Below, piece after piece: positions 15,287 to 64,000 of a stretch of DNA of 64,000 bases. The DNA is taken from NCBI GenBank assembly GCA_030431455.1, contig JAUIJE010000002.1:129294-193293 (forward strand). Reading direction: 5' to 3'. The stretch comes from a bacterium (GTDB lineage Bacteria > Myxococcota > UBA727 > JAUIJE01). The position numbers and the translations under genes were made by a program. Below the pieces are notes generated by a model. That model did not search any database, had not been told where the DNA came from, and was given only the letters and a program-made list of their open reading frames with translations. How positions within the stretch are numbered: the stretch's first letter is position 1; each line of letters begins with the position of its first letter.

Positions 15287-15346
15287 CCAGGCGACGATAG
15301 GCCGAGCCCGGGGACGGGAGCAAGACGCGGACGGCCCGCCCGGGGG

Positions 15347-18823: not shown

Positions 18824-18833
18824 GGCGCGCTCC

Positions 18834-22259: not shown

Positions 22260-22273
22260 CGCTTCGCCTCCGC

Positions 22274-34696: not shown

Positions 34697-34773
34697 GGTG
34701 GCTGTAGCTCAGTTGGTAGAGCACTGGATTGTGATTCCGGGAGTCGCGGGTTCAAGCCCCGTCAGCCACCCCA
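34697..34773 (+). tRNA. tRNA-His (anticodon GTG) with an encoded G-1 and CCA.
   Basis: GGTGGCTGTAGCTCAGTTGGTAGAGCACTGGATTGTGATTCCGGGAGTCGCGGGTTCAAGCCCCGTCAGCCACCCCA is a near-identical architecture to E. coli tRNA-His, with a cloverleaf, a 7-nt anticodon loop TTGTGAT and the T-arm GGTTCAAGCCC. Confidence 0.85.
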
Positions 34774-49000: not shown

Positions 49001-49120
49001 CACGTCCTCGGCGATGTCGAGCTTGCTGTCCAAGAACGAATAGGCGACGAAGTCTGGGTGGGTCTCGGCCCGCCAGACCAAGAGTTCGGACAATGTCGCT
49101 GGACGTTCGGGCTCGGTCAT
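46049..49120 (-). CDS. Tri-functional fusion: fatty-acyl-AMP ligase (FAAL), acyl carrier protein, transmembrane segment and left-handed beta-helix (hexapeptide) acyltransferase.
   Basis: ATG 49120. FAAL motifs FLQYTSGSTGAPKGVMVTH and YRTGDLG. ACP FSTFGLDSVAAVQF (phosphopantetheinyl Ser). Three hydrophobic helices (AFFVLFFVTAGGAAAAAG...LLPVAYLLFLVVLIFLVGAAV). C-terminal hexapeptide repeats ...IKDNVVVHETAQIGDDVTIGSHAVIGAGAQVLTGATV. Confidence 0.8.
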   Translation of the reverse strand: MTEPERPATLSELLVWRAETHPDFVAYSFLDSKLDIAEDVTLAQLLDRASRVAGALHRAAPDAERVLLWHEAGIDFIVAFFGTLLAGKVPVPAYPPRGGRLDAESPALSIAQDARAGAISLDAALLAKLGTFPHALDAMAKVVLDESGAPYVAPPPAPDDVAFLQYTSGSTGAPKGVMVTHRNAFANQDMMCARFSFDDWEEPRPGAGWLPPYHDMGLLGMVLQSVFLPARFYFMTPTQFLRRPFRWLEAIAKYKARVTAGPNFAYQLCVDRIADEDVQKLDLSAWQSAICGAERVRADTLEQFVQKFAPAGLRPDVFLPCYGMAEATLFVSSAPPGTARTKSKDALALGTTVSAGLVAPGGVLVVADDEQRPVPDGTVGEVYYRGPNVARGYYGKPELSAETFGRTVHGHGDGYLRTGDLGAMCDGQLYIVGRKKNVLIVHGKNHAAEDVEHSARRALEAQGAPFTEVCAFSFVEDDQDRAALLIEAKWDADTAGRAFDAVAARLLQDCGFAPDALAVVGRVALPRTTSGKIRHLAAREQFEQGAFDIAHRRDAPRPAGPSAEKSREADDGLLAWLAAELGYAQSAISSDQPLSALGFDEIHLAQLCEDRGLDSAGFDLDQATVADLRTLPKKARASAPAGPASAPAPVGPASAPAAGGLEPFMIGWVAERLSRPADEVDPDAVFSTFGLDSVAAVQFVAALEEHIGRPIDITVAWDHPTIRQLAAHLGDAGAAPAVVRLSGDRPLFNDEGATASPEKGAVITDLAFFVLFFVTAGGAAAAAGSAWQWLAALVPSAIGYALLPVAYLLFLVVLIFLVGAAVRLLPPVSPGLYALSHKTTTAWGLRLMAQRILYLPLWRRTILGSNLLRYLALRALGARTSYFVRTATDAWILDPALLDLGRGVLLAAGSSVAGHLMGQSKLLLGRAELADGVQVQPNAYVSLDCKMGQDSVLGFRSVLCPHVRVGARTVIKDNVVVHETAQIGDDVTIGSHAVIGAGAQVLTGATVDDGAHIPAGAVVRPGP

Positions 49121-50028
49121 GCGGCGCGCGAGAGCTGCGCGTACTTGTCGAGCACCGGCGCGGCGTGCCGGGTGCGGGCAAACGCCCGGTGGGCGAGCAC
49201 CGCGCCGAGCCGCGCGGGGCGGTCGTGGTCGGGCACCCGGGGGGCGGCGTCGCGGCCGAGGTGGCGCTTGGCCACGTCGTCGGCCCAGGCCAAATACGCG
49301 CCCGCGTCGAAGAACTTCTCGAGCAGCTCGTGGGCAAAAAAGCGCGTCGCGAGGTCGCGCTCGCCGTCGGGCAAGGCCAGTGCCGACAAGTACGCAGAGT
49401 CGGTCACGATGTGTTGGGCTTCTTCCCGGCGGTGACAGGCGTGGGCGGTGAGCCAGCAGGGCTGGACCGGCTCTTTCATGTCGAGCAGCAGGTGGTGCAC
49501 CCGGACGGTGGCCTCTTCGAAAAAGAGAATGTCGAGCCACACCAAATAGTGAAAAGCGGCGGGGGGGAGCTTGTCCCCTTCGCCGAGGGCGAAGCGGCGA
49601 TTGGACAGCGTCGAGGTCGCTTGGTGCAGCCGGGCGGCCCAGTCCTCGTGCTGCTGCGCGAGCTTTTTCTGGTACCGGTTGAAGAGGGTGATGTGTTTGC
49701 CCTCTTCTTTGACCAGCGCGTCGAGGGCGATGCTCGGCCGCACGCTCGATTGTTGCTCGGCCACGAACCGCAAAATCAGCTTCTCGAGTTCGACAAACTC
49801 GCGGCACAGAAGCGTGGCTGCTCCCCATTGCAGCTCTTGGTCGGCGGCGGGCACCGCGCGGAACGGCCCCGGATCGATGCCCGCTTCGCGCAACAACACA
49901 TCGGGCACGTAGCGGCCGGGGGCATCAAACGCGTCCCAGGCCACGTCCTGTTCGAGGTCGAAGCGATAGCCGACATCCCGCGCGTCGAGGCGCTCGATGG
50001 GGGCCAGGTGGGGGTACAGACCGCTCAC
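49117..50028 (-). CDS. Putative di-iron oxygenase (AurF/ferritin-like four-helix-bundle family).
   Basis: Paired E...H motifs (EEGKHITLF; EEAQHIV; HELLEKF). Its stop overlaps the FAAL-fusion start (ATGA), so it is co-translated with it. Confidence 0.45.
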   Translation of the reverse strand: MSGLYPHLAPIERLDARDVGYRFDLEQDVAWDAFDAPGRYVPDVLLREAGIDPGPFRAVPAADQELQWGAATLLCREFVELEKLILRFVAEQQSSVRPSIALDALVKEEGKHITLFNRYQKKLAQQHEDWAARLHQATSTLSNRRFALGEGDKLPPAAFHYLVWLDILFFEEATVRVHHLLLDMKEPVQPCWLTAHACHRREEAQHIVTDSAYLSALALPDGERDLATRFFAHELLEKFFDAGAYLAWADDVAKRHLGRDAAPRVPDHDRPARLGAVLAHRAFARTRHAAPVLDKYAQLSRAA

Positions 50029-50092
50029 GCCCTCGTATATACAAGACGACCGCCGCCTCTCCTAGGCGGGGTCTTTTGTCCAGGAGCGCCGC

Positions 50093-51748
50093 GTGATCCC
50101 TCCGTCCCTTTTGCACACGCTCGGACAGGCTTCGCGCAAAAAAGAGGCCCAAGCCTTCATCCGCGATTGCGCGCAGCCGGACCTTGCCCAGCGCGCGCGG
50201 CTCGATTGGCTCCTGACCAACAACCAGGACACCGCGTTCGGCAAGCAGCACGGTTTTTCCGACATCCCTGACGCCCATGGCTATCGCGAGCGCGTGCCCC
50301 TCATGCGCCCGGCCGAGCTGCTGCCCTGGGTCGAGCGCCAAATGAAGGGCGAGCCCAACGTGCTCACCCGCGAAGACCCCGAGTACTTTGTGCGCACCAC
50401 CGGCTCGACCGGCGTGCCCAAACACGTGCCGATCACCCCCACCTACCGCACGGAGTTTCAGCGCACGGTGTTCTCGTCGGTGTGGCACATCTACCGCCGC
50501 TATCCCGCCGCGTTCAAAGGGCGCATCTTGTACTTCGTGGGCTCGCCCCAGCTCGACGTCACCGACGGGGGCGTGCCCATCGGGACCATGAGCGGCTACA
50601 ACTTTGTGAAGATGCCGGGGCTCGTGCGTGCGCTCTACGCCTGGCCGCCCGAGCTCTTTTCCGTCGCGGACCTGTCCACACGCAACTACATTGCCCTGCA
50701 CCTCGCGGCCACGTCCGGGGTCACGGTGATGGCGGGCATCTTTCCTGCCAGCGTGGTCTATCTGTTTCGCGACCTCGAAGAGCGCATCGAGCTGCTCGCC
50801 CACCACGTCAAAAAGGGCACCCTCCCTGACGAGCTCGTGCTCACCGACGCCCAGCGCGCGTTTTTTCAAAAACAGATTCGCCCCAGCAAAAAACACGGCG
50901 ACCGCCTCGCCCAAGCGGCCAAACAATCCCGGGGCGGCATCGTGCCCACCGTGCTCGACCAGCTCAAGCTCGCCTACTGCTGGACCACGTCGACGGCAGG
51001 CGCGTTTTTGCCCGAGCTGCGCGCCCACTTCGGTGACGAGATCATCATCCGCGACGCGATTTACTCGGCCTGCGAAGGGTGGTGCAACGTGCCCCTCGGC
51101 GAGCCCACCCCGGGCGGCCCCCTCGCGGTGCGGTCGCACTTTTTTGAGTTCATCCCCGAGGACAAGGCCGACGAGGACCAACCAGAGACATTGTTGGCCC
51201 AAGAGCTCGAGGTCGGCGAGCGCTACCTGATCGTGTTCTCCACCGCGGGGGGTGTCTACCGGTATCGTCTCGGGGACGTGGTCGAGGTCAGCTCGCGGTT
51301 TGAGCAGACCCCCGTCATCCACTTCGTGCGCAAGCTCGGCGCCGCCTGCAACCTGGTGGGCGAAAAACTCGAGGAGGTGCACGTGGCCCAGGCGGTGCGC
51401 GAGGTGTTCGGCGACGGGCTCACCTACTACGTGCTCGCCCCGCGCGCGGGCGACGTGCCCGGCTACGACCTTTACGTCGAGGGCGCATCCGACGGCGACT
51501 GGTCCGCGCGCACCGCCGCCATCGATGTGGCCCTCGGCAAAGCCGCCCCCGATTACGGGCGGCTCCGCCAAGGCCAAAGCCTCGGTCCGGTGCGCACCTT
51601 GGACGTGCCCGCGGGCACCTACCGCGCCGACCGGCAGCGGCTGAGCGATCTTGGCACCGCCGAGAGCCAGATCAAAACCGCGCACTTGGTCGACGACCAA
51701 GCGCGCGTGCCGGTGCTGGTCAAAGAACGCGCCGCGGTCCGCGCCTAA
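50093..51748 (+). CDS. GH3-family (auxin-responsive GH3-like) adenylate-forming acyl-acid amido synthetase.
   Basis: 551 aa. FVRTTGSTGVPKHVPIT is the ANL-superfamily P-loop. The length and the YRLGDVVEV, WSARTAAIDVAL regions fit bacterial GH3 proteins. Confidence 0.65.
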   Translation: MIPPSLLHTLGQASRKKEAQAFIRDCAQPDLAQRARLDWLLTNNQDTAFGKQHGFSDIPDAHGYRERVPLMRPAELLPWVERQMKGEPNVLTREDPEYFVRTTGSTGVPKHVPITPTYRTEFQRTVFSSVWHIYRRYPAAFKGRILYFVGSPQLDVTDGGVPIGTMSGYNFVKMPGLVRALYAWPPELFSVADLSTRNYIALHLAATSGVTVMAGIFPASVVYLFRDLEERIELLAHHVKKGTLPDELVLTDAQRAFFQKQIRPSKKHGDRLAQAAKQSRGGIVPTVLDQLKLAYCWTTSTAGAFLPELRAHFGDEIIIRDAIYSACEGWCNVPLGEPTPGGPLAVRSHFFEFIPEDKADEDQPETLLAQELEVGERYLIVFSTAGGVYRYRLGDVVEVSSRFEQTPVIHFVRKLGAACNLVGEKLEEVHVAQAVREVFGDGLTYYVLAPRAGDVPGYDLYVEGASDGDWSARTAAIDVALGKAAPDYGRLRQGQSLGPVRTLDVPAGTYRADRQRLSDLGTAESQIKTAHLVDDQARVPVLVKERAAVRA

Positions 51749-52329: not shown

Positions 52330-52464
52330 GTCCGCCTCCTGCCGGGCCAAACCGCTTGGTTTTCCGCCCGTTGTGCTCTATACCGACCATAGGTCGGTAA
52401 AGCCCTGGGGACAAGGAGATCTGCCCCCCTTGCTCAAATCCGAGACAATGCGGAGAGGACCGCG

Positions 52465-53127
52465 ATGGGACGGGTGCGCAAAAAACCGGAAGAACGCCGG
52501 GCCGAAATCGTGGACGCGGCTTTGACCCTGAGCGCGACCCGCGGGCTCCAGGACGTGAGCGTGGCCGACATCATCGCCACCGCGCAGGTGAGCAAGGGCG
52601 GCTTTTACCACCACTTCGCGTCCAAAGATGACGTGCTCCTGGCCGTGGTCGAGCGCCTCGCCGACGTGGCCCTGGCCAGCTTTGTGCTCGTGGCCCAAGA
52701 CCCCAAGCTGAGCGCCACCGAAAAGCTGCGCCGCATCCTGCACGACGGGCCCCGGCAAAAGCGCGCCGCCGTCGGTGACGAAGGGCTCGAAGCGGTGCGC
52801 CAGTCGCTCTTTTCCGACGAGGGGCTCGCGCTGCGCACGGCGTTGGTGCAGCAGACCATCAAAAAGACCGCGCCGCTTTTGCAGCGGGTGATCGACGAAG
52901 GGCGCAGCGACGGCAGCATGCCGCGCGCGGATGACGACGTGGCCCGCCGCATCTTGCTCTACGGCGCGGCCTTGACCAATGCCGCTGCGCTCGATCCGGG
53001 CGCGGACATGCGCGCGATGTTGACCGCCTACTGGCGCGACACCGCCCGGCTCTTGGGCATGGACGAGCACGCCCTCGACGACGAGGGCGCGCTCAGCGAC
53101 GCAGAGGACGCAACAGCTGCGCGATGA
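52465..53127 (+). CDS. TetR-family transcriptional regulator.
   Basis: RBS GGAGAGG. N-terminal HTH ...AEIVDAALTLSATRGLQDVSVADIIATAQVSKGGFYHHFASKDDVL. Confidence 0.85.
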   Translation: MGRVRKKPEERRAEIVDAALTLSATRGLQDVSVADIIATAQVSKGGFYHHFASKDDVLLAVVERLADVALASFVLVAQDPKLSATEKLRRILHDGPRQKRAAVGDEGLEAVRQSLFSDEGLALRTALVQQTIKKTAPLLQRVIDEGRSDGSMPRADDDVARRILLYGAALTNAAALDPGADMRAMLTAYWRDTARLLGMDEHALDDEGALSDAEDATAAR

Positions 53128-53950
53128 AGGTGCGGGGCGCAGGGTCGCTCACGCCCACGTCGAACGACCCCGTGTGCCAAGGCGCGCGCCAGGTGCCGAA
53201 CAACCGGTCCCAGACCACGAGGGCGGAGCCGAAGTTGGTGTCGGCGTGGGCGGGGTCTTTGCTGTGGTGGATGCGGTGGGACGCGGGCCCCATGAGCACG
53301 TGTTCGACCGGGCCGAGGCGAAAATCAATGTTGCTGTGATCGAGCTGGCCCACAAAGGTGTTGAGGGTGATGAACCAGAACACGACCTCGTCGGGCGCAC
53401 CCACCGCGACCAGGGGCAAAAACATGAACAGCGGCTGAAAGAACCGCTCGACCAGGTGCGAGCGCGAGGTCTTCCAGGCGCTCAAGCGGTCCACGTCGTG
53501 GTGCAGCTCGTGAAAACGCCAGAGCAGGGGCACGCGGTGGAGCAAACGGTGTTCGATGTAGCGGCCAAAGTCCGCCACCACGAAGACGAGCACCAGCTGC
53601 GCCCAAAACGGCCAGGTGAGCGGCCAGATGCCGCGGCCGGAGGTCGCGTCGAGCACCTGGCCGACGAGGAGCAGGCCCGCCCATTGGGCCACAAACGTGC
53701 CCGCCCGGGCGCCGCCCGCGGTGCCGAGCAACGCGTGGGCCGTGTCGTGCAGCATCTGACCGTCATTGCACAACCAGTCGCGGCGGTAGGGCAGCACGCG
53801 TTCGATGGCGATGAGGGTGCCGAACACCCCGAGGCTGACCACGAACAGGGCCAGGAAGGGGTCGATGAGGTCGCGCAGCCACATGGTCACGCAGGTGGCG
53901 AGCACGATGAGCACCCAAAATAGAGAATAGCGGACGACGAGACCGGCCAT
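53093..53950 (-). CDS. Fatty-acid hydroxylase / sterol-desaturase superfamily membrane di-iron enzyme.
   Basis: His boxes HRLLH, HELHH and HRIHH with 4 TM helices. Confidence 0.75.
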   Translation of the reverse strand: MAGLVVRYSLFWVLIVLATCVTMWLRDLIDPFLALFVVSLGVFGTLIAIERVLPYRRDWLCNDGQMLHDTAHALLGTAGGARAGTFVAQWAGLLLVGQVLDATSGRGIWPLTWPFWAQLVLVFVVADFGRYIEHRLLHRVPLLWRFHELHHDVDRLSAWKTSRSHLVERFFQPLFMFLPLVAVGAPDEVVFWFITLNTFVGQLDHSNIDFRLGPVEHVLMGPASHRIHHSKDPAHADTNFGSALVVWDRLFGTWRAPWHTGSFDVGVSDPAPRTFIAQLLRPLRR

Positions 53951-53953
53951 CGC

Positions 53954-55819
53954 TCAGCGCCGCAAACGGGTCAGGGCCCGGCCGAGCACCGACCGGGTGA
54001 GCACCACCCCGGCCTGCAGCCGGGTGGTGCGCTCGGGGCGCAGGGTGCCTTCGAGGTGTTTTTGCAGCGCGGCTTGGCGCTGGACCTTGCCCGACGAGGT
54101 CTTGGGGATGCTCCCGGGGGCGAGGGCCACGCAGGCGGCGTGCACCGAGAACCGTTCGTTGATCGCGGACTCGATGGCGCGACCGAGCGCGTCGTGTTCG
54201 TCCTCGGGGGTGCGGGTCTCGAAAAACACGTGCAGCTGCTCGTCCCCCGACACATTGTCGGACAGGCCCACCGCCACCGCGGTGCCTTTTTTGACCCCCG
54301 CTTGGTCGTTGACCAGGGCCTCGACCTCTTCGCCGCGGATGTTGCGGCCCCGCACCACGATGACGTTCTTCAGACGCCCGGTCACGAACAGCTCGCCCCC
54401 TTCGACAAAGCCGAGGTCGCCGGTGATGACCCAGCCGTCCTCGGTCACGGGCAGGTCCCCCGCGGTCACCGAGCTCAGCAGGTTGGGGCCGCCGGCTTGG
54501 ATGTGGCCGACCTCGCGCTCGTCGAGGATCGTGCCGTCATCGCCCACCACCCGCACCGCGGAGGTGGGCAACACCGGGCCACAGGACACGACCTCGACCC
54601 CGTCGGGATCGTCCTCCGCCACCCCCTCGTCGAGCCCGTCGCGGTTCACCCGGAGGGTACGCACCTTTTGCCCCGGCGCACACGCGCTCACCGCCACCGT
54701 GGCCTCGGCCAACCCGTAGGCGGGGGTAAACGCGTCGATGGAAAAGCCCGCGGGCCCAAACTTGTCGGCGAACTTGCGCAATGTATCTGCACAGATGAAC
54801 TCCGCGCCGTTGAGCATCATGCGCACCGAAGACAGGTCCAGGCTCTGCGCCTCCTCGTCGGAGATGCGCGCCACCGCGCGGGCGAACGCGAAGTTCGGCC
54901 CCATGGAGAACGTGGCCCGGGTCTCGGACATGGCGCGCAACCACACCATCGGATCGAGCATAAACGTCACCGGGGACATCAAGGTGAGCGGGAACTGCCC
55001 GAGCAGCGGACACATCAGCCCGCCCATCAACCCCATGTCATGGTAAAGCGGCACCCAGCACACCATCTTGTCCTCGGGCCCGACCCCGACCATGCGGCAG
55101 AGCCCATAGACATTGGCGATGACCGCCCGCTGGGAGATCTCCACCCCCTTGGGATCGGACGTCGACCCCGAGGTGAACTGCACAAACGCAATGTCGCTGG
55201 GCAAGACGTCCACCTGGGGCGTGCGCGGGGTCACCGCGTCGGCGGACAGGCCCCGCACCCAGCGCACGGTGGGCGCGGACAGCGCCACCTCCCCGAGCAC
55301 CGAGGTCAGCCGGGGGTCGGCCACGAGCATGGCCGCGTCGCAGGAGCGCGCGATGTGGCCGATGCGGGCCAAGCCTTGCTGCAGCTGGGCCAAGGCGGGC
55401 GGCGGGTAGGCGGGCACGGGCACGCCCCCGGCGAGCTGCACCCCAAAAAAGCCGATCACAAACTCGTGCGAGGTGGGCAGCACCAGCACCACGCGTTCGT
55501 GCTTTTTCAGGCCCGAAGCCCGCAGCTCGGCGGCGAAGCCGGCGGCGCGTTCGAGCAGGGCGCGGTAGCTCAGGAAGGTCTCGTCCTCGCCGTCTTCGCT
55601 GAGCACGGTGATGCCGATGTCGTCCCGCGCGCCGGCCGCGACCGCGGCCTCGAGCATGGTGGGGTGCGGCCAGCGGTCGTCGCGCGCACACACCAAACAC
55701 GCGCGGCGTCCGCGGCGATCGTCGATCAAGGGCGCGCGCTGCTCGATCCGCACGGGCGTGGGGCGGGCCGCACCCTGGGCGCGGGGCGCGGCGTCTGCGG
55801 GGGCGGAGACCGATTCCAT
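53954..55819 (-). CDS. Fatty-acyl-AMP ligase (FAAL, FadD32-like).
   Basis: FVQFTSGSTSDPKGVEISQ, YHDMGL, ITGDLG, KTSSGKVQR. The start is uncertain: ATG 55819, internal ATG 55657 (MLEAAV...) or a GTG. Confidence 0.8.
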   Translation of the reverse strand: MESVSAPADAAPRAQGAARPTPVRIEQRAPLIDDRRGRRACLVCARDDRWPHPTMLEAAVAAGARDDIGITVLSEDGEDETFLSYRALLERAAGFAAELRASGLKKHERVVLVLPTSHEFVIGFFGVQLAGGVPVPAYPPPALAQLQQGLARIGHIARSCDAAMLVADPRLTSVLGEVALSAPTVRWVRGLSADAVTPRTPQVDVLPSDIAFVQFTSGSTSDPKGVEISQRAVIANVYGLCRMVGVGPEDKMVCWVPLYHDMGLMGGLMCPLLGQFPLTLMSPVTFMLDPMVWLRAMSETRATFSMGPNFAFARAVARISDEEAQSLDLSSVRMMLNGAEFICADTLRKFADKFGPAGFSIDAFTPAYGLAEATVAVSACAPGQKVRTLRVNRDGLDEGVAEDDPDGVEVVSCGPVLPTSAVRVVGDDGTILDEREVGHIQAGGPNLLSSVTAGDLPVTEDGWVITGDLGFVEGGELFVTGRLKNVIVVRGRNIRGEEVEALVNDQAGVKKGTAVAVGLSDNVSGDEQLHVFFETRTPEDEHDALGRAIESAINERFSVHAACVALAPGSIPKTSSGKVQRQAALQKHLEGTLRPERTTRLQAGVVLTRSVLGRALTRLRR

Positions 55820-55852
55820 GGCCGGGCGAGTATAGCGACCGGGGGGGGCGGC

Positions 55853-57226
55853 TCAATGCCCTCCGTCCAGGGTGGCCAGCGCGGCCGCCAAGGCTGGGCG
55901 GAGGTCGCGTTCGTCGACGACCACATCGAGGTAGCCGTGTTGCGCGGCCTGGGCCAGGGGCGAACGCCCATCGACGGTGGCGTCCCCTTTGATCTGGTCC
56001 TGGGCGGGCTGGCCCATGCCCACCACCTGGGCGGTGGGCAGGCCGATGCGGTGCTGGGCGGAATAGGACAGCACCGTGCCCCCGCCGACGCTGCGGCGGA
56101 GGATGACGCTCACGTGCGGGACCGCAGCATCGGCGAACGCGCAGACCACGCTCGCCCCCGCGTGCAGGATGCCGCCTTGCTCCTGGTCGAGCCCCGGCAA
56201 AAAGCCGGGCACGTCGACGAGGGAGACGAGGGGCAGGCCGAAGCGGTCCGCGCGCCGGATGTGCCGCGCGAGCTTGTGCGACGCGGTCACGTCGAGGGCG
56301 CCGGCCTGGTGCAGGGACTGGTTGGCGAAGAAGGCCACGCCCCGGCCCGCGAGCCGGGCAAAGCCGACCACGAGGCTGCGGCCATAGTCCGGCTCGAACC
56401 GCACCACGCTCCCGTCGTCGAACAGCCCGGTGATGACCTTTTGCACGTCAAAGCCTTGGCGCAACGACGCGGGCACCAGGCCCCCCAAGGTCGTGGCCGG
56501 CGCCTTCGCGGCCGCGGGGGTGCGCAGGTCGATCAGGGTGCGCACAAGGGCGATGCCCGCCGCCTCGTCGTCGACCACCGCTTGCACCGCGCCGGTGTAG
56601 GCCGCGTGCATGGCCGGGCCCCCGAGCTCGTCGAGGTCGACCTGTTGCCCCCGGGCCTGGGCGGTGACGGTGGGCCCGGTCAAGAAGAGATGGCTTTGCT
56701 CGTCGACCATCACCAGCACGTCGGTGAGCACCGCGGCGTAGGCGGCGGCGCCCCCGCACAGGCCACATGCCAATGTCACTTGAGGCACGCGGTGTTTGGC
56801 CCGGGCCACCGCTTCGGTCCACTGGGGGTTGCCGAGCACCGCGGGCACCCCGTCTTTGACCCGCGCCCCCTGAGAATCCATCAGCGCGATCACCGGCCAG
56901 CCCGCGGCGGTGGCCTGCTCGACGAGGCGGGCGGTCTTCTCCGCCCCCGCGCGCGTCACCGCGCCGCGGTCCACCGTCCCGTCGTGGGCATACACCGCGA
57001 CGCGCTGGGCCCCGATGCGCCCCACGCCGCACACCACGCCCTCCCCGCCGTCGAGGTAGCGTTGCCGCTCGACGAATGTGTCTGCATCGAGCAGCGCATC
57101 GATGCGCGCCCGCGGCCCGCCCCGGCCCATCCGGGCGTGGCGGGTGCGCAACACCTCGTCGCCCGCCGCGGCGAGCTCCTGCTCGAGAGCGGCGAGGTCG
57201 GCGGCGGGATCGCGCGGCTCGCTCAC
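55853..57226 (-). CDS. Carboxyltransferase (AccD/PccB-like beta subunit of acyl-CoA carboxylase).
   Basis: Two carboxyl-transferase half-domains (…GGEGVVCGVGRIG…, …ALDVTASHKLARHIRRADRFGLPLVSLVDVPGFLPG…). The GTG start at 57226 overlaps the upstream ACP stop (GTGA). The upstream ORF extension is low-complexity. Confidence 0.7.
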   Translation of the reverse strand: MSEPRDPAADLAALEQELAAAGDEVLRTRHARMGRGGPRARIDALLDADTFVERQRYLDGGEGVVCGVGRIGAQRVAVYAHDGTVDRGAVTRAGAEKTARLVEQATAAGWPVIALMDSQGARVKDGVPAVLGNPQWTEAVARAKHRVPQVTLACGLCGGAAAYAAVLTDVLVMVDEQSHLFLTGPTVTAQARGQQVDLDELGGPAMHAAYTGAVQAVVDDEAAGIALVRTLIDLRTPAAAKAPATTLGGLVPASLRQGFDVQKVITGLFDDGSVVRFEPDYGRSLVVGFARLAGRGVAFFANQSLHQAGALDVTASHKLARHIRRADRFGLPLVSLVDVPGFLPGLDQEQGGILHAGASVVCAFADAAVPHVSVILRRSVGGGTVLSYSAQHRIGLPTAQVVGMGQPAQDQIKGDATVDGRSPLAQAAQHGYLDVVVDERDLRPALAAALATLDGGH

Positions 57227-57477
57227 GCCGCGGACTCGCTGCGCCGGGCCTGGATGAACGCCACCAGGTCCTTGACCGTGTCGAGGTCGCGGTAATCGTG
57301 CAGCTTGGCCTTGTAACCGAACCGCTTGTGCACAAAGAACACAAAGTCCACCACGTCGAGCGAGTCGAGCCGCAGGTCGCGCACAAAGGACGCCTCCGGC
57401 GTGACCTGGTCGGGCTGGGCCCGGAAGTTTTGCACCAGGATGTCGCGGACAGCGTCGAGAATCTCTTGGTCGGTCAC
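57223..57477 (-). CDS. Acyl carrier protein.
   Basis: 84 aa from GTG 57477 (GGAG 9 nt upstream). DLRLDSLDVVDFVF is the phosphopantetheine attachment motif. It is embedded as the tail of a junk track ORF. Confidence 0.65.
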   Translation of the reverse strand: MTDQEILDAVRDILVQNFRAQPDQVTPEASFVRDLRLDSLDVVDFVFFVHKRFGYKAKLHDYRDLDTVKDLVAFIQARRSESAA

Positions 57478-57491
57478 GGCGATCGGCTCCG

Positions 57492-58514
57492 TCAGGGCGC
57501 GTCCCCCACGCGCCACAAGGCTGCGGCGCAGGCGTAGCCCGCGCCCGCGGCGAGCAGTAGCACAACATCCCCGGCTTGTACGCGGCCGGCGCGGCGGGCC
57601 CGGTCGAGGGCGATCAACACCGACCCCGACGAGGTGTTGCCCACGGTCTCGATGCAGGAAAAGACTTTGTCGTCGTCGAGCCCGGCCAGCGCGGCCACCC
57701 GGCGCAGGATGCGCCCGTTGGCCTGGTGCGGGACCACCAGCGACACCGCGGCTTTGTCGACGCCCGCCCCGTCGAGGATGCGCGCGGCCGCGTCGGCCAT
57801 GCCCTCGGTGGCGGACATGTACACATCGAGCCCGTCGACCATGCGCAAATGCTGCTCGCCCGCGGCGAGGCGTTCGGCGGTGAGCGGCCGGCGCGACCCG
57901 CCGCCGACGATGCCGATCTTGTCCCGTCCCCGGCTGTCCAAAAACGCCGCGGTGGCGAGCAGGCCGCCCGCGTCCGGGCCCGGCCCGAGCAAAAGCGCGC
58001 CCGCCCCGTCCGCGAACAAGGGCGCGGTGCCCACGTCGGTCACGTCCAGCACCCGCGAACGGATGTCCGCGCCGACGACGAGCACGACTTCGCCCGCGGT
58101 GAGCACGTGGCGCGCGGCGGTGTCGAGGGCATAAAGCGACCCGGCGCAGGCGGCGGCCACGTCGTGGGCGGGGCATTCGAGGTCGAGCCCGAGGCCCGCG
58201 TGCACGAAGCTCGCGGTCGAGGGCACGGGCTGGTCGGGCGAGGTCGTGGACACGATCAACCGGTCGATGCCGGCCGCGGACAGGCCCGCGTCGTCGAGAC
58301 ACGCCTTCGCCGCGGCGATGGCCAAATCCGAGGTGGCCACGTCGTCGGGCGCGATGTGCCGCGAGACGATGCCGGTCTTTTTCACGATGTCGTCGGCGGT
58401 GGTGTCACACCCCGCGGCGATGACCGCGGCGTTGTCGCGCACAGGATCCGGCAGATGGTGCCCGGTGCCGAGGATGTGCACGCGGGGGCCCGGGGGAAAG
58501 ACAAACACGCTCAT
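57492..58514 (-). CDS. fabH: 3-oxoacyl-ACP synthase III (KAS III / FabH).
   Basis: Cys-His-Asn triad contexts AAACAGSLYAL, VVPHQANGRI and GNTSSGS. The ATG at 58514 overlaps the upstream ACP stop (ATGA). Confidence 0.85.
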   Translation of the reverse strand: MSVFVFPPGPRVHILGTGHHLPDPVRDNAAVIAAGCDTTADDIVKKTGIVSRHIAPDDVATSDLAIAAAKACLDDAGLSAAGIDRLIVSTTSPDQPVPSTASFVHAGLGLDLECPAHDVAAACAGSLYALDTAARHVLTAGEVVLVVGADIRSRVLDVTDVGTAPLFADGAGALLLGPGPDAGGLLATAAFLDSRGRDKIGIVGGGSRRPLTAERLAAGEQHLRMVDGLDVYMSATEGMADAAARILDGAGVDKAAVSLVVPHQANGRILRRVAALAGLDDDKVFSCIETVGNTSSGSVLIALDRARRAGRVQAGDVVLLLAAGAGYACAAALWRVGDAP

Positions 58515-58726
58515 GCGGTTTTGTTCACCAAGGCACAAAGTCCCTGCACCGTGAGCGGCCGGGCCGCGGCCACGTCGGCCGCGCGCAACGTCACCGCGAG
58601 ACCCTCTTCGAGGGTCTCGATGAGCACGACCTCGTCGAACGAGTCGAGCTCGAGGGGCGCGTCATCGGCCGCGGGCAATGCCACGTGGGCGCGCAACAGC
58701 TGGCGCAACGATTCAGGGGTGCTCAC
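58511..58726 (-). CDS. Second small carrier protein (ACP/PCP-like).
   Basis: 71 aa with LELDSFDEVVLIETLEE, a Ser-containing DSx motif in helix II. Confidence 0.55.
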   Translation of the reverse strand: MSTPESLRQLLRAHVALPAADDAPLELDSFDEVVLIETLEEGLAVTLRAADVAAARPLTVQGLCALVNKTA

Positions 58727-59981
58727 CGTCGGACGGTCCTTTCAGCGCGGCCAGGCGATCGACCTTGCCCGAGCCGAGTGTGGGCAGCTCACGCCAAAAA
58801 CAAAAGGCCCGCGGGCGCATCGCCCCCGAAAGCTGCGCACGCACCTTCGCGATGACTTCGTCCGGGTCGCGGCGGGTGGCGATCGCGGCCTTCACGACCT
58901 GGCCCAGCCGGGCCGACGGCATGGGCCCCACCACCGCCGCGTCGATCCCGGGCACTTGCAACAGCGCATCTTCCACCGCCACCGGCGAGACGCGCACCCC
59001 GCCGGTGTTGATCACCGCGTCAGCGCGACCCTGGATGATCACGCGGCCCTCGTCATCGATGGCACCCACATCGCCGGTGGGCAAACGCCCTTCGTGGGTC
59101 GCTACCGTGGCCACGCCCTGGCCCCACTCGATGGTGCCCGACATCGCCCCGGGGGTCATCGCCCACAACTTGCCGTCCTCGACGACCATCTCCACCCCCG
59201 GCACGGGTGGACCCACGAGTCCGGGCACATCCGTCACCCCGTCGTCGCGCCAGGTGCAGAGCCGTGGCCCGGCTTCGGTGCAGCCATATTGGGTATAGCG
59301 CGCGCTGTTCGGCATCACCGTCCGCCACCGCTTCCACAGCGCCGCGTCCACCCGCGCCCCCGCCGACGCCACCCAAGCCGGGGCGACGGCGCCGTCGTCG
59401 ATGAGGTCGAGCAACATCGGCAGCTGGGACGGCACCAACTGCACGCCATCGGGCCGCGCGGCGAGAACCCCGCGGAGCCTGAGCAGGGCGGTGCGCCCGG
59501 TGGGCGCGACAAACGTGCCCCCTGCGATGATGGTCCACAGCAACTGGCCCACCAGTCCGTAGATGTGGTGCATCGGGCTCAGCCCGGCCATTCGACCGGG
59601 CGCGGGCAATACTTTGGAAATGGCGGCTAGGTTGTGCCGCACCGAGCGCCCCGACAACACTACCTGTCGAGGGGCCCCGGTGCTCCCTGACGACGCGACC
59701 ACCAGCGCCGCGCTCGGAAAATGTTCCTGCATCAAGAGCTCGGTCGCTGCATTCGGCGCGGTCACGGTGGGGCCCGGCACGATCACCGCACGCCCTTGCC
59801 GCCACCACGAGAGACAGTGCACCAGCACCCCTGCGGGGTTGCCGTCGTCGGGCCAGGGCACATCGCGTGCGGCCCGGTGCAGCAAAGCCACGCCGGTGGT
59901 GCTTTGTTTGCCCCGCACCAGCCGTGGTCGGTCGTCGTCTTCGAGCGCCCGGGCAAACGCTTGGTACAGCGCGCGGCTCAT
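58713..59981 (-). CDS. Stand-alone adenylate-forming enzyme (AMP-dependent synthetase/ligase, DltA/OleC-like size).
   Basis: VVASSGSTGAPRQVVLS P-loop, YGCTEAG, LPTGDVG, LGSGKVDR. Confidence 0.75.
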   Translation of the reverse strand: MSRALYQAFARALEDDDRPRLVRGKQSTTGVALLHRAARDVPWPDDGNPAGVLVHCLSWWRQGRAVIVPGPTVTAPNAATELLMQEHFPSAALVVASSGSTGAPRQVVLSGRSVRHNLAAISKVLPAPGRMAGLSPMHHIYGLVGQLLWTIIAGGTFVAPTGRTALLRLRGVLAARPDGVQLVPSQLPMLLDLIDDGAVAPAWVASAGARVDAALWKRWRTVMPNSARYTQYGCTEAGPRLCTWRDDGVTDVPGLVGPPVPGVEMVVEDGKLWAMTPGAMSGTIEWGQGVATVATHEGRLPTGDVGAIDDEGRVIIQGRADAVINTGGVRVSPVAVEDALLQVPGIDAAVVGPMPSARLGQVVKAAIATRRDPDEVIAKVRAQLSGAMRPRAFCFWRELPTLGSGKVDRLAALKGPSDGEHP

Positions 59982-61009
59982 GGGCGAAGCACCATCGCGG
60001 CCCCGGTCACGCCCCCGCCCACCGCGCAGAGCAACACGCGGCCTTTGGCGTCGAGGCGCCCGTCGCGCCGGGCCTCCGAGAGCGCGTAGAGCACCCCCGC
60101 GGCGCCGATGTTGGCGTGTTGGTGCACGGTGCTGACGCGGGGAACGTGCGCGAGGGCCACGTCGGTCATGACCTGCTGCACAAACCCCGCGCTGGTCTGG
60201 TGGGGCACGACCAGGTCAATGCCGCCCGGGGCCTTTTCCCGTGCGGCGGTGATGCATTGGGCGTAGAGGCCGCGCGCGCCGTCAGCGAACGCCCCCTCGT
60301 CGCCGGCCAAGCGGTATTCGCCCGCGGCGATGGCGTCGGCGGTGGGCGGCATCGGCCCCTTGGTGCCCACCGCGTCGGACAGGCCCTGCAGCGTGGTGGC
60401 CGCGAACGCCTCGATGGTGCCGGGGCCCGGGGTGAGCACCACCGCGGCGGCCCCGTCGGCGAGGTGGAGCGCGGCGAGCTTTTTGCCGGTGGGCAACACC
60501 CGCGAAAACGTGTCGCCGGCGACGACGAGCACACGCTTCGCCCCGGCCGCGATCCACTGCGCCCCGGTGAACACCGCGAGCAGGCCCCCCGCGCACCCGC
60601 TGCGCACGTCGAAGGCACAGCCGGCCGCGCCCAGGCGATGCGCGAGCACCGAGGCGGTGGGGGTGGTGAACCGGGCCGGGCTCGACGTGGCCACGATCAA
60701 AGCGTCGAGCGCGGCGGGGTCGGTCTGGGCGTCGGCCAAGGCGGCGTCGGCCGCGCCCGCGAGCAGGTCGAGGATGGTGACGTCCGCCCGCGCGGCGTAC
60801 GGCGGGGCCACAAAATGATGCTGCACCAGCCCGTGTTCGTCCTCGAGGGACTCGGCCACAAACGCGCGGTGCTCGTCGGAGGTGCCGTGGCCGATGTGGG
60901 CGAGCAGCGCCCGGTTGTCCATCGCCACCGGGCCCAGGCAGGTGCCGAGCCCCGCGAGCTGCAGGCCGGGCACCGGGCCGAGGGCAGACAGGCGGTTCGT
61001 TGCGTTCAC
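59978..61009 (-). CDS. Second KAS III-like condensing enzyme (FabH/OleA-like thiolase fold) with a variant active-site context.
   Basis: DVRSGCAGG (Cys), VPHQTS (His), HQHANIG. Its stop overlaps the adenylase start (ATGA). Confidence 0.7.
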   Translation of the reverse strand: MNATNRLSALGPVPGLQLAGLGTCLGPVAMDNRALLAHIGHGTSDEHRAFVAESLEDEHGLVQHHFVAPPYAARADVTILDLLAGAADAALADAQTDPAALDALIVATSSPARFTTPTASVLAHRLGAAGCAFDVRSGCAGGLLAVFTGAQWIAAGAKRVLVVAGDTFSRVLPTGKKLAALHLADGAAAVVLTPGPGTIEAFAATTLQGLSDAVGTKGPMPPTADAIAAGEYRLAGDEGAFADGARGLYAQCITAAREKAPGGIDLVVPHQTSAGFVQQVMTDVALAHVPRVSTVHQHANIGAAGVLYALSEARRDGRLDAKGRVLLCAVGGGVTGAAMVLRP

Positions 61010-61101
61010 GACCGCACGGTACCACCCGATGCTCGAGTTGAGACATCCGCGCGGGGGTCGCCCGGGTGGCTCTATTCTGATCGGGTCCCATTAGCGACCT
61101 G

Positions 61102-61557
61102 TTGGCCCACCCCTGGATCGATGTCAGCGAGGCCCCGCTGTACCGGCTGACGCTGTTCAAAGCGAAAGCGCCCGAGCAAGAGTGGGAACCGCTCGTCGAG
61201 TCCTGGATGCAGACCACGCGCGACTTCTACGCCCAGCTCGACCACCCGCTGGGCTGGGTCGTCGACGCCCGGTTTGTGCCCTCGTCCCGTTCGACCTCGC
61301 AGCAGCGACACCGGCTGCGGCAACACCTCAACGACACCGCCCCGGTGATGGGCCAATGGTGCGCGGCCGCCGCGATCATCATCGACAAGGCCGCGGTGCG
61401 CGGCGTGCTCACCGCGTTGCACTGGATTTCGCCCCCCGCCTATCCACAAAAGGTTTTCGCGACCCCGGAGGAGGGCGAAGCCTGGGTTCGCCCCCGGCTC
61501 GACGCCGCGCTGGACGCGCACGGATGGGCTACTGGACGGTCCGCGCCGGTGCGCTAG
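61102..61557 (+). CDS. Hypothetical protein.
   Basis: 151 aa ORF of balanced composition between two biosynthetic operon arms. TTG start per the track, and the true start is uncertain. No recognisable motif. Confidence 0.3.
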   Translation: MAHPWIDVSEAPLYRLTLFKAKAPEQEWEPLVESWMQTTRDFYAQLDHPLGWVVDARFVPSSRSTSQQRHRLRQHLNDTAPVMGQWCAAAAIIIDKAAVRGVLTALHWISPPAYPQKVFATPEEGEAWVRPRLDAALDAHGWATGRSAPVR

Positions 61558-61566
61558 CCTCGCCCC

Positions 61567-62316
61567 ATGACCTTGTCACCCGGCGCGATGGTGGTGATCG
61601 GCGGCTCCACCGGGGCCGGTCGCGCGGTGGCGACGTCGTTCGCGAAGGCGGGGGGCACGGTCTATGCCGCCGGCCGCGACGAGGACCGGCTCGCGTCGCT
61701 GCAAAAAGAGCTCGACGACCGTGGCCAGACCTTCGCCCTCGACGTGACCACCCCGGACGCGTTTTTGTTCGTGGGCGCGCTGCCCGACGCGCCGGCGGTG
61801 ACCGGCGCGGTCTACGCCGCGGCCCACCGGTATGTGCCTGCACGCTTACACCACATGGGCGACGACGAGCTGTTGCAGGTGCTGTCCACAGATTTGCTCG
61901 GGGCCGAACGGTTCGCGCGGGCCGTCCTGCCCCGGCTCATGACCCAGCCCACGTCGAGCCTGGTGTTCGTCGGGTCGCTGGCCGCGCAGGTGGGCATGAA
62001 GGGGGGCGCGGCCTATGCCGCGGCCAAGGCCGGGCTCGAGGGGCTCGCGCGCAACCTCGCCCTCGAGTACGGCCAGTACGGCGTGCGCTGCAACGTGGTG
62101 CGGCCCGGCTTCATCGACGGGGCGCGCTTCGACGCGCGCACCGCCGACAGCGACGCCCGGCGCGAAAAGCTGCTCGCCCAGACCACCCTCGGCACGTTGG
62201 TGAGCGAACAAGACGTGGCCGACCTCGTGCTGTTTTTATGTTCGGACAAGGCCCGCGCCATCACCGGCGCGGTGGTGGACATCACCGCCGGGGCCCACCT
62301 GAACCGCCTTTGGTGA
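61567..62316 (+). CDS. Short-chain dehydrogenase/reductase (SDR; FabG/OleD-like).
   Basis: VIGGSTGAGRAVA (glycine-rich NAD(P) loop), S...YAAAK catalytic YxxxK, PGFIDG. Confidence 0.8.
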   Translation: MTLSPGAMVVIGGSTGAGRAVATSFAKAGGTVYAAGRDEDRLASLQKELDDRGQTFALDVTTPDAFLFVGALPDAPAVTGAVYAAAHRYVPARLHHMGDDELLQVLSTDLLGAERFARAVLPRLMTQPTSSLVFVGSLAAQVGMKGGAAYAAAKAGLEGLARNLALEYGQYGVRCNVVRPGFIDGARFDARTADSDARREKLLAQTTLGTLVSEQDVADLVLFLCSDKARAITGAVVDITAGAHLNRLW

Positions 62317-63433
62317 GCAGCGCGTACACCAGGTAAAAGCCCGCGCAGACCGCGGCCATGATCCCGTACACCGTTTGGGCATAGCCGGCGTACAACCCCA
62401 AAAAGAGCGGGGGCCCGACCACGGTGGCCACGTCGGTGAGCGTCCCGTACACCCCGAAGGTGGTCCCGTACCGGCCTTCGCCGGAATGGTCCGCCACCGC
62501 CTTGAGCGCGAGGGCGAACACGATGGACGCAACCAGCACATACCCCAGGAATGTCACTGCAAACGCCGCGGGCCCCGGGATCGCGTACATCGCGGCCAAC
62601 ACCCCCGCGAGGGCGAGCCCAAAGACGAGAATGGTGCGCGCGGGCCGCACCCGGTCGGCCAAAAAGCCGCCGATGCCCTGGGCCACGCCGAAGAGCACCC
62701 CCATGCCCAAAAAAAGCAGGGACACGGTGCGCGTGTCCCAGGCGAACGCGTCTTTTCCGTACACGGGCAAAAGGCCTTGAAAGGCGGTGTACGTCATCTT
62801 GTTGAAAAAGACCGGGAGCATCAGGGCCACGAGCCACACGTCGACCAGCGCGGTCTTGATGTGCGCGACCTCTTCGCGCAGCGTGGTCGGTTCTTTCACA
62901 TTGCCCTCGGGCAACCGCCGCACGAGGAGCAGGACCGAGACCAGGGCCGAGACCCCAAACGCGAGCCAGATGACAAAGCGCGGGCCGTGGCTTTCGGAAA
63001 ACGCCGCGGCCAGGCCCGGCCCGACGAGCAGCCCCGCGGTGCCCACCGCCCCGATGGTGCCCACCCGCCGCCCGGTGGTGGCCGGGTCCCCGGTGGCGAC
63101 GACCACGCCGGACGCGGGGTAGACAAGTCCCGTGGCCGCGCCTTCGAGGGTGCGCGCGATGGCGAGCACAATGGCATTGTCGGTCAAACAGAACGGCAAC
63201 AGCGACAAGGTGAACAGCACCGTGCCAATGATGAGCATGCGCCGGCCCCCGTGGCGGTCGGCGAGCACGCCCCCCGGGACCTGGGCCACGATTTTGCTCG
63301 TGGCGTAACAAAAAAGAATCATCGCCAGCGCGCCTTCGCGCCCAAACGTGTCGTCGATGAGCGCGGGCAACTGCGGGATGATCACCCCGTACCCGAGCGA
63401 CACGATGAACAAGGCGGTGGCGCACAACCACAT
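62282..63433 (-). CDS. MFS transporter.
   Basis: 12 predicted helices. The GxLaDrxGrR-like motif VPGGVLADRHGGRRM lies between TM2 and TM3. Confidence 0.8.
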   Translation of the reverse strand: MWLCATALFIVSLGYGVIIPQLPALIDDTFGREGALAMILFCYATSKIVAQVPGGVLADRHGGRRMLIIGTVLFTLSLLPFCLTDNAIVLAIARTLEGAATGLVYPASGVVVATGDPATTGRRVGTIGAVGTAGLLVGPGLAAAFSESHGPRFVIWLAFGVSALVSVLLLVRRLPEGNVKEPTTLREEVAHIKTALVDVWLVALMLPVFFNKMTYTAFQGLLPVYGKDAFAWDTRTVSLLFLGMGVLFGVAQGIGGFLADRVRPARTILVFGLALAGVLAAMYAIPGPAAFAVTFLGYVLVASIVFALALKAVADHSGEGRYGTTFGVYGTLTDVATVVGPPLFLGLYAGYAQTVYGIMAAVCAGFYLVYALLTKGGSGGPRR

Positions 63434-63477
63434 GCGCGGAGCCTACTCTTCTCCGGGCCGCACCGGGACGGGCCCAG

Positions 63478-63510
63478 CGCAAAAAAGGACGCACCGCGTG
63501 TGCGGTGCGC
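63478..63510 (-). terminator. Rho-independent terminator on the minus strand (GCGCACCGC-ACAC-GCGGTGCGC then T-run).
   Basis: Plus strand reads aaaaaaggacgcaccgcgtgtgcggtgcgc. On the minus strand this is a hairpin followed by UUUUUU, directly downstream of repeat unit A. Confidence 0.55.
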
Positions 63511-63660
63511 CCCGTCGGTGGACCAAGATTCGCGATGTCGTGCATGTTCCAGATGTAGACATCGACGGCATTCCACCGACACTGGCTCGATTGTTCGACG
63601 ACAAAAATGGAGGTGACGTAGCTACGGTGCTCTACCGGCTGAGCTACGGCGCCGCTTGCG
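63510..63660. repeat. Approximately 150-bp imperfect direct repeat (copy A). Copy B lies at 63850-64000 at the window edge. Each ends in a tRNA-5'-half-like sequence, and copy A is followed by a T-arm-like GGTTCGAGCCCC.
   Basis: The two copies share GGTGGACCAA..TCGCGATGTCGTGCA...GTAGACATCGACGGCATTCCACCG...TTCGACGACAA...CTGAGCTACGGCGCCGCTT. The reverse complement of the last block is GGCGCCGTAGCTCAGCCGGTAGAGCACC, a canonical tRNA acceptor/D-arm. No complete cloverleaf could be folded. Confidence 0.6.
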
Positions 63661-64000
63661 CGTCACCGGCGGGGCTCGAACCCGCGACCGCCGTCGTGAA
63701 TGTAGTCATTCTCCGCATTCGCCGAACGCAACAAACCAAAACAACTCCTTCGTTTCTCTCTTCGTCTTTCGTCAAAACCATCTCGGTGCGAACCCGATGT
63801 GCCGGCGCGGTCTGGCTGGCCCCCGGGGGGACGGCCCCATTGCCGCCCCCCCCTGCCGACGTGGTCGGTGGACCAAAAATCGCGATGTCGTGCACGCTGA
63901 ATGTAGACATCGACGGCATTCCACCGGCAGGACCGTGTGTTTGGTTCGACGACAAGGGCGGGGAAGACGGCGCTCTGCCTTCTGAGCTACGGCGCCGCTT

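Follow-up and report, generated by a model that had tools for sequence, protein, structure and literature searches.

A probable tandem array of YrlA-type and hairpin Y RNA genes at the edge of a 64-kb window from a Myxococcota contig

A composite repeat on the minus strand

The DNA analysed here is a stretch of 64,000 nucleotides from a bacterium of the GTDB lineage Myxococcota; UBA727; JAUIJE01 (GenBank assembly GCA_030431455.1, contig JAUIJE010000002.1, positions 129,294 to 193,293), which we refer to throughout as the window. Its minus strand carries, between positions 63481 and 64000, two copies of a composite repeat whose starts lie 343-351 nt apart, each unit of about 345 nt being made up of two RNA modules and a spacer. 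Copy A is complete, and copy B is truncated by the window edge at base 64000. We consider the region to be, in all likelihood, the downstream end of a tandem array of genes for bacterial Y RNAs, the class that includes YrlA, the RNA partner of Rsr, which is orthologous to the Ro60 autoantigen (PMC4201824; bioRxiv 10.1101/312249). This identification, which we judge probable overall, is firmer for copy A than for the hairpin modules that accompany it.

Read 5' to 3' on the minus strand, the array consists of a YrlA-like unit (copy B), a hairpin (B'), a spacer, a second YrlA-like unit (copy A), a second hairpin (A'), and an intrinsic terminator. Copy B is visible at 63944..64000 as a 3' part only, comprising the end of the acceptor-like hairpin, the D arm and the 3' strands, which were recognised by identity to copy A; its 5' half lies past the window edge. 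The hairpin, or mini, Y RNA B' (63864..63928, ~65 nt) was delimited by a match to R2, a covariance model built from eight hairpins in Rsr loci elsewhere with the window sequences excluded, and by its 88% identity to A'. Copy A (63592..63727, ~135 nt) was defined by a full-length match to the Rfam family RF02553, by the terminal stem in its predicted fold and by an R2 match, and hairpin A' (63514..63580, ~65 nt) by an R2 match, its fold and the signature GAATGC-N6-10-CTACA. That signature occurs at three sites in the window, against 0.02 expected, and the three are copy A and hairpins A' and B'. In both copies the gap between the YrlA-like unit and its hairpin is 12-15 nt.

The spacer between B' and copy A (63728..63863, ~135 nt) contains G+C-rich hairpins and a purine-rich stretch; our scans of it returned no match to R2 or to R1, a narrow covariance model made from the two window hairpins, and no recognisable Y unit, sigma-70-like promoter or strong terminator. 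The sequence GGCAC…TTCGC upstream of copy A was considered by eye as a sigma-54-like promoter and rejected on account of its spacing. The array closes at 63481..63513 with the terminator, which abuts the 3' end of A' and has a 12-bp stem with nine G-C pairs (63513→63486), a 4-nt loop and the run TTTTT.

An earlier reading of this DNA, made from the letters alone, had described much of this layout. The two minus-strand copies with identical blocks are borne out by the 25-mer GGTGGAATGCCGTCGATGTCTACAT, which occurs exactly twice in the 64-kb window where none would be expected by chance, and the minus-strand hairpin with a U-run terminator was likewise correctly identified. The repeat unit of about 150 bp that it proposed must be replaced by the unit of about 345 nt.

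Copy A and the YrlA family

YrlA RNAs are known from Salmonella Typhimurium, Mycobacterium smegmatis and more than 250 other species (PMC4201824). Their ends form the Rsr-binding stem and their centre mimics a tRNA with the arms in the order V region, T arm, closed acceptor-like (AS) hairpin and D arm (PMC4201824; bioRxiv 10.1101/312249), and a crystal structure is available (bioRxiv 10.1101/312249). In a permissive Rfam scan of 63300-64000, copy A matched the YrlA family RF02553 over the entire model (positions 1-114 of 114); the minus-strand match runs 63725→63592 and scores 49.1 bits (E 6.1e-10).

The correspondence extends to individual elements. The ends of copy A pair in the minimum-free-energy fold as a 9-bp stem, GUUCGGCGA/UCGUCGAAC, and the stem-only model R2, treating the tRNA domain as an insertion, matches from 63725→63595 (20.7 bits, E 0.005). 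The stem is built as a helix, an internal loop of AUGC opposite AUUUUUG, and a further helix closing with GAC…GUC, after which the strand continues CUACAU. Inside the terminal stem lies GGCGAAUG (63716..63723), which fits GNCGAAN0-1G, the motif defined in PMC4201824 and proposed as the Rsr/Ro60 contact, and the V region begins with the YUAY element in the form CUAC (63705→63702).

Following the V region, the T arm GCGGG-UUCGAGC-CCCGC (63669..63685) aligns to the RF02553 T stem-loop and is preceded by an equivalent of C48; its loop provides the equivalents of T54, U55, C56 and A58. Next comes the closed hairpin CGGUGACGC-GCAA-GCGGCGCCG (63647..63668), which occupies the AS position of the Rfam alignment and has nine pairs, one A•G mismatch and a GNRA tetraloop (GCAA). 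The D arm, GCUC-AGCCGGUA-GAGC (63629..63644), placed from the Rfam alignment and the sequence, contains the equivalents of A14, G15, G18, G19 and A21, with those of U8 and A9 just before it. The nucleotides of the tRNA elbow (G15/C48, G18G19/U55C56 and U54/A58 equivalents) are thus present in copy A, as are all of the sequence features listed for YrlA in PMC4201824. Copy A is, by sequence and structure, a YrlA-type Y RNA.

These assignments clarify which tRNA-like blocks the sequence-only reading had seen. The T-arm-like sequence GGTCGCGGGTTCGAGCCCCGCC is present, the arm proper spanning 63669-63685. The block taken for a tRNA acceptor and D-arm start is shared by the copies as far as GGCGCCGTAGCTCAG, after which copy B continues AAGGCAGAGCGCC and not CCGGTAGAGCACC; placed at that time at the end of the repeat on the minus strand, it lies mid-RNA, after the T arm. 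The proposal of a tRNA-like small RNA of about 175 nt with a terminator was right as to kind, and the region resolves into a YrlA-like RNA of about 135 nt, a separate hairpin of about 65 nt, and then the terminator.

Given tRNA-like D- and T-arm sequences that are perfect, direct repeats, and a position bordering a gene cluster, it was reasonable to consider functionless tandem tRNA pseudogenes, or att scars and other debris of tRNA-integrating mobile elements, as had also been suggested. In copy A the arms are permuted, the V region being followed by the T arm, the closed AS hairpin and lastly the D arm, the acceptor-like stem is capped by GCAA and there is no anticodon arm, and because of these three properties a tRNA gene, a tRNA pseudogene and an att scar were ruled out. 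ARAGORN found a single tRNA in the whole window, a tRNA-His at 34698-34773, and none in the repeat region; Rfam gave no tRNA match in 63300-64000 even at E ≤ 10, nor did the scan at gathering thresholds. The pseudogene or scar explanation is further opposed by the structured-RNA match of the whole unit to YrlA and by a conservation that follows the RNA modules and is unbroken between strains, and we regard it as strongly disfavoured and very improbable.

The conservation in question was seen in two comparisons. Over the part visible in both, copies A and B are 75% identical, in a strongly mosaic pattern: the hairpin of about 65 nt is 88% identical, with its differences concentrated in the apical loop, and the linker and variable helix are only 41-58% identical. 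Copy B agrees with copy A at 19 of 19 positions over AAGCGGCGCCGTAGCTCAG and at 12 of 13 over the 3' stem strand UUGUCGUCGAAC, and its D loop, AGAAGGCA, retains A14, G15, G18, G19 and A21. In a second strain, the 235 nt of the region covered by its contig (window 63434-63668) show no differences; they take in copy A from its AS hairpin to its 3' end, together with hairpin A', terminator and leader. The adjacent 1152-nt gene for a major facilitator superfamily (MFS) transporter has 33. Together the mosaic identity and the strain invariance point to selection on the RNA modules, and gene conversion between the copies may be an alternative source of the identity between A and B.

What lies past the edge can be approached from assembly behaviour. 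Two Logan contigs from two samples (L001 and L015) both begin at window position 63668, inside copy A, at the 30-mer CGGTGACGCGCAAGCGGCGCCGTAGCTCAG. Since an assembly with k=31 breaks at a repeated node, a start at this 30-mer implies a second copy of the AS hairpin, and copy B agrees with all 19 of the bases of the 30-mer that are visible in it. Copy B would then be a full YrlA-like gene with the same closed AS hairpin and not a tRNA, and a canonical tRNA just past the window edge that accounts for copy B is unlikely. Breakage of short-read assemblies at the Y RNA repeat also means that such arrays will often be missing from, or split in, metagenome-assembled genomes, which may explain the scarcity of relatives.

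The hairpin units and their relatives

Hairpins A' and B' have a basal helix, GUCGGUGGA/UCCACCGAC, and a second helix, CGAUGUC/GACAUCG, separated by an internal loop of AUGC opposite AAUCUUGG (AUUUUUGG in copy B) and topped by an apical loop of 16-18 nt that opens with UACAU. They repeat the stem architecture of copy A, the Y stem GAAUGC … CUACA … UUG, with the loop in place of the tRNA domain. The model R2 matched A' from 63578→63516 (29.1 bits, E 2.5e-5) and B' from 63926→63866 (29.7 bits, E 1.7e-5), with standard pairs at 15 of 15 positions in each, and at E < 0.01 its matches over the 64-kb window were exactly B', A' and copy A. No motif match supported an integron attC or dif-like recombination site in the hairpin, and a small open reading frame (ORF) within it was rejected on account of stop codons. 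A look-up of two spurious ORFs that run across the region returned no entry for either.

The class from which R2 was derived is recurrent. In Rsr-encoding loci elsewhere the signature GAATGC-N6-10-CTACA marks same-strand arrays of 2-5 units, and among these a script pairing the signature with its 3' strand found hairpin units of the same design, 56-67 nt long, of which GCCCUGAAUGCCGCUGUGACUACAUCCAAAGACGUCUCAGCAGAUUUUGUCAGGGC from locus L091 is an example. These hairpins were undetected by Rfam, RF02565 included, at E ≤ 0.1. Applied at E ≤ 1e-3 to 607 kb of other DNA, R2 returned 60 matches, all in loci with Rsr-linked Y RNA arrays. Because of the R2 matches and this specificity, the window hairpins can be placed in the Rsr-locus hairpin class, and we hold it likely, with less assurance than for copy A, that they are members of a recurrent class of Y RNAs that is the counterpart of the 'long hairpin' (YrlB/Yrn2-type) RNAs.

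Several other arrays and tRNA-like RNAs were noted among the comparison loci. On plasmid pRheCIAT894d of Rhizobium sp. CIAT894 (L014 5545-6221), rsr and rtcB are separated by five tandem Y-RNA-like units, of which only one reaches the Rfam YrlA cut-off and the last is without a tRNA-like domain. In several rtcR-rsr-rtcB loci (L091 1771-1826, L023 826-881, L033 806-861, L046 7513-7568, L066 6737-6792 and L111 11372-11427), rsr is followed first by a hairpin Y unit of almost constant length, 56 nt, and no Rfam family detects the examples that were scanned. Six loci (L026, L032, L035, L042, L096 and L101) hold another class of tRNA-like RNA, in which the T-AS-D order is framed by 5' GGCCGGUGGUGUAGG and 3' CUUGUUCCCCGGCC in place of the GAAUGC/UUG stem; its members in L026 and L101 adjoin ORFs that match Rsr only weakly (58-64 bits), and the class may represent a divergent Ro/Y system.

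Given that each hairpin follows its YrlA unit by a short gap and that A' runs directly into the terminator, it was not unreasonable to ask whether the hairpins are simply 3' extensions of the YrlA transcript, serving in processing or stability, as an anti-exonuclease element or as part of a compound terminator, with the likeness to a Y stem arising by internal duplication. The silence of the Rfam YrlB model and the one-base break in the strict Rsr motif, both described below, fit that explanation. Nevertheless, no terminator follows B', the same architecture stands free beside rsr in many loci and matches a model derived from those units, a homolog on a phage contig sits alone between two tRNA genes, and conservation extends beyond the paired bases to the internal and apical loops. 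We therefore consider the extension explanation unlikely and continue to treat the hairpins as Y RNA units.

The nearest relative of the window hairpins was found at L105 1838-1908, which is the same as L125 3238-3308, with 29.3 bits (E 5e-5) for R1 and 32.7 bits for R2. It keeps AAUGCCGUCGA-GUCUACAUCU nearly intact and, as a single homolog, shows compensatory changes in both helices (GGUGGA/UCCACC to GGUCAA/UUGACC, and CGAUGUC/GACAUCG to CGAGGUC/GACUUCG). It is this relative that stands alone with a tRNA-Ala gene on either side; the array around it comprises at least 21 tRNAs, and the contig that bears it, IMGVR_UViG_3300020195_000009 (286 kb), is viral according to IMG/VR. In the stretch examined there, R2 recognises four more units and Rfam gives a YrlA match, and RF02565 weakly matches one R2-positive hairpin of this contig. 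Over L125 3238-9049, at least 21 tRNA genes are packed into 7.7 kb, and interspersed among them are two Y-RNA-like units of hairpin type and three of YrlA size, five in all; the 11.5 kb examined of this jumbo-phage-like contig contained no Rsr gene.

Beyond this one case the searches were sparse in their yield. R1 detected no further close relative among 109 metagenome loci or 80 viral Rsr loci, two scans of viral sequences with the window patterns gave no matches, and a hairpin-pattern scan of 185,579 species genomes gave no genuine match, all 10 of its 10 hits being chance occurrences in coding regions. The last result bears on the notion that the element is a generic intergenic repeat, such as a repetitive extragenic palindrome or a miniature inverted-repeat transposable element, that resembles Y RNA by coincidence. 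As a hairpin-forming intergenic repeat at which short-read assemblies break, it has something of that character; set against this are the genome scan itself, the restriction of the element to two copies in 64 kb, both inside the array, and the specific match from a model made without window sequences. We find a generic repeat highly implausible.

The viral contig raised a different question, that of who owns the array, which might belong to a prophage or other mobile element starting past base 64000 and carrying Y RNAs, whether or not a phage rsr accompanies them. In favour are the known occurrence of YrlAs in phages (PMC4201824), the presence of Rsr genes on at least 403 viral contigs, and the position of the sole close hairpin relative on that contig, inside a tRNA array with YrlA-like units. 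On the other hand, nothing resembling a phage adjoins the array on its visible side, with its MFS gene and lipid gene cluster; the 64 kb have only one tRNA gene, and the same junction occurs in two strains. We consider phage ownership quite unlikely, and it would in any event alter the ownership of the array and not the identity of its RNAs.

A broader proposal may be made for the hairpins, which we regard as doubtful. Mini-Y hairpins of ~56-70 nt, with GAAUGC…CUACAU…UUG set in two covarying helices, could constitute a widespread subfamily of Y RNAs that is without a tRNA domain, missed by Rfam and common to bacteria and jumbo phages. Here they would have been fused into a regular unit of YrlA and mini-Y, perhaps uncoupled from rsr or loading two Rsr rings per transcript.

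The rsr question and the genomic neighbourhood

Several results weigh against identifying the region as a Y RNA array. The score of copy A lies under the RF02553 gathering cut-off of 69 bits. The single-sequence folds are only modestly better than those of shuffled sequences, with z-scores of -1.4 to -2.7. For the hairpins, the Rfam YrlB family (RF02565) gave no match at E ≤ 10 in 63300-64000, and other Rfam families gave nothing credible; they also carry GUGGAAUG, one position off the strict GNCGAAN0-1G, the partner base being flipped such that the pair is kept. The alignment of eight Rsr-locus hairpins does support a two-helix structure, with 95.8% of its cells paired, changes on both sides in 9 of 15 pairs and a covariation score of 0.71 against at most 0.14 when the partners are slid, but helix 1 of this alignment was picked by complementarity, leaving helix 2, in which 4 of 8 pairs show compensatory change, as the only source of unbiased covariation. 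A sigma-70 promoter scan recognised no promoter, and tblastn found neither rsr/TROVE nor rtcB in the 64 kb.

Two of these points can be compared with Y RNAs elsewhere. The Nonomuraea YrlA directly upstream of rsr scores 51 bits, and the tandem YrlA units in five metagenomic rsr loci score 38-80 bits, those under the cut-off having 38-68. Because YrlAs adjacent to rsr also fall under 69, we judged the RF02553 cut-off to be conservative. Likewise, the same one-base deviation from the motif occurs in the Rsr-linked hairpins of L044, L102 and L070 (variants GCGGAAUG, GAGGAAUG and CGGGAAUG).

As to rsr, the tblastn search employed four Ro60/Rsr queries, namely human Ro60 and three bacterial Rsr proteins, together with RtcB and RtcR. 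The human Ro60 query was validated by a match of 39% identity to a TROVE protein of Bosea; the RtcR query recovered a generic sigma-54 activator only. In the comparison loci, a pattern running from T arm to D arm identified 64 non-tRNA loci, with rsr present in 38 of the 64, at a distance of 69-1024 nt and always on the same strand; it was upstream of the Y RNA in 27 of the 38 loci that bear it. Twelve of the loci extend for 3 kb or more to either side, and seven of these contain rsr. Since rsr in these loci lies near the Y RNA, on the same strand and mostly upstream, a linked rsr would be expected just past base 64000, upstream of copy B, if the array has one at all.

On the other side, 3' of the array on the minus strand, the terminator is followed by the MFS transporter gene (62282-63433), which is unrelated to the array, and then by a lipid-type biosynthetic cluster. 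The MFS protein has one match at 98% identity and thereafter only matches at 45% or less, the nearest outside the species being at 44%, so that there is no usable synteny; its named best matches are metagenome-assembled genomes of Myxococcota and Deltaproteobacteria, at 43-45%. The G+C content is 68.8%.

Other genes of the window were noted in passing. The lipid or polyketide-like cluster beside the MFS gene (52400-62316) encodes two FabH-like KAS III enzymes, two AMP-ligases, an acyl carrier protein, a carboxyltransferase, a fatty-acid hydroxylase, a short-chain dehydrogenase/reductase and a TetR regulator. At 15347-28137 on the minus strand are four consecutive very large ORFs of 1217, 1158, 1224 and 879 aa, with MopE-type metal-binding repeats, PPC domains and ASH/HYDIN-like Ig domains, the first of them having no Pfam match at all; besides the MopE-repeat and PPC proteins there are PSCyt3 and PSD2 proteins, and these proteins, like the MFS matches and the G+C content, suggest a Myxococcota-like bacterium. 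A scramblase-domain protein (13739-15346, minus strand) and a GH3 protein (50066-51748, plus strand) belong to Pfam families named for eukaryotic proteins, and a 1291-aa fusion (46049-49924, minus strand) joins an AMP-binding domain, a phosphopantetheine carrier and a C-terminal hexapeptide-repeat (LbH) domain resembling an acyltransferase.

Proposed function and known systems

By analogy with the family (PMC4201824; bioRxiv 10.1101/312249), the array would be transcribed as one or two precursors, possibly from the promoter of an upstream rsr, and then trimmed. Each RNA would bind the outer face of the ring-shaped Rsr through its stem, which in the YrlA-like units bears GGCGAAUG, the putative recognition motif for Ro60/Rsr, along with the conserved internal loop AUGC / UUUUUG. 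The tRNA-like module might recruit or gate an effector, which in known systems would be PNPase in the RYPER complex or RNA repair in rtcB operons, and the hairpin type might provide an alternative partner for Rsr or simply gate the ring. More speculatively, the long acceptor-like stem might permit cleavage by RNase P, as in M. smegmatis. Transcription, Rsr binding and linkage to rsr past base 64000 are in each instance what we would predict from these relatives.

What appeared to be tRNA debris thus belongs to a defined class of genes, and the case illustrates how Rfam cut-offs can miss Y RNA loci, with copy A at 49 against 69 and the hairpins without any model that detects them. It places the Ro60/Y RNA system in a barely sampled GC-rich bacterial lineage, and the GAAUGC-N6-10-CUACA signature and an R2-type model recover whole Y RNA arrays. 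Should the hairpins of this class prove to be Rsr ligands, this would help to explain why every Rsr locus has several Y RNAs, and also why these RNAs are present in phages with tRNA arrays.

The RNA is of a known kind, a YrlA-type bacterial Y RNA with a hairpin partner, seen here in a new lineage. Less ordinary are the regular alternation of two RNA types within a duplicated unit of ~345 nt, the variant stem motif of the hairpins, a visible side with neither rsr nor rtcB, and a hairpin class that escapes Rfam and has its nearest relative in a jumbo-phage-like contig. With tRNAs (canonical, permuted or pseudogene), tmRNA and viral tRNA-like structures the elements share T- and D-loop sequences and potential tRNA elbow interactions; they differ in having no anticodon arm, no free acceptor end and permuted arms, and in drawing no call from tRNA or tmRNA detectors.

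A 'long hairpin' second Y RNA, YrlB or Yrn2, accompanies the first in all three species examined in PMC4201824. In M. smegmatis, YrlB and YrlA share a precursor transcript from which they are processed, and Deinococcus radiodurans Yrn2 is co-transcribed with tRNA-Asp and Yrn1 and processed (PMC4201824). BLASTN with YrlB found orthologs in S. enterica serovars only (PMC4201824), and RF02565 is accordingly narrow and Salmonella-centred. Like YrlB and Yrn2, the window hairpins are short stem-loops beside a YrlA/Yrn1 relative, with an Rsr-binding type of stem and without the full tRNA domain; unlike them, they are silent to RF02565, carry the motif GUGGAAUG and have a 16-18-nt loop opening with UACAU in place of a small pyrimidine-rich loop.

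The likeness to YrlA (RF02553) comprises the terminal stem with GNCGAAN0-1G, the AUGC/UUG internal loop, the CUAC that opens the V region, T and D arms that are nearly invariant and linked through a closed AS hairpin, and multiple Y RNAs per locus. The differences are the score of 49.1 against the cut-off of 69, a long AS stem of nine pairs with a GCAA loop, the lack of rsr and rtcB across 64 kb on one side, and the duplication of a unit in which YrlA alternates with a hairpin RNA. Finally, the rtcR-rsr-(Y RNAs)-rtcB arrays of L014, L091, L047 and L099 resemble the window array in having 2-5 same-strand units, each opening GAAUGC…CUACA, and in mixing tRNA-like and hairpin units, there at a spacing of 100-170 nt. 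Those arrays sit between rsr and rtcB, whereas the array described here ends in a terminator before an MFS gene, and its units alternate regularly with a period of ~345 nt that includes the 135-nt spacer.

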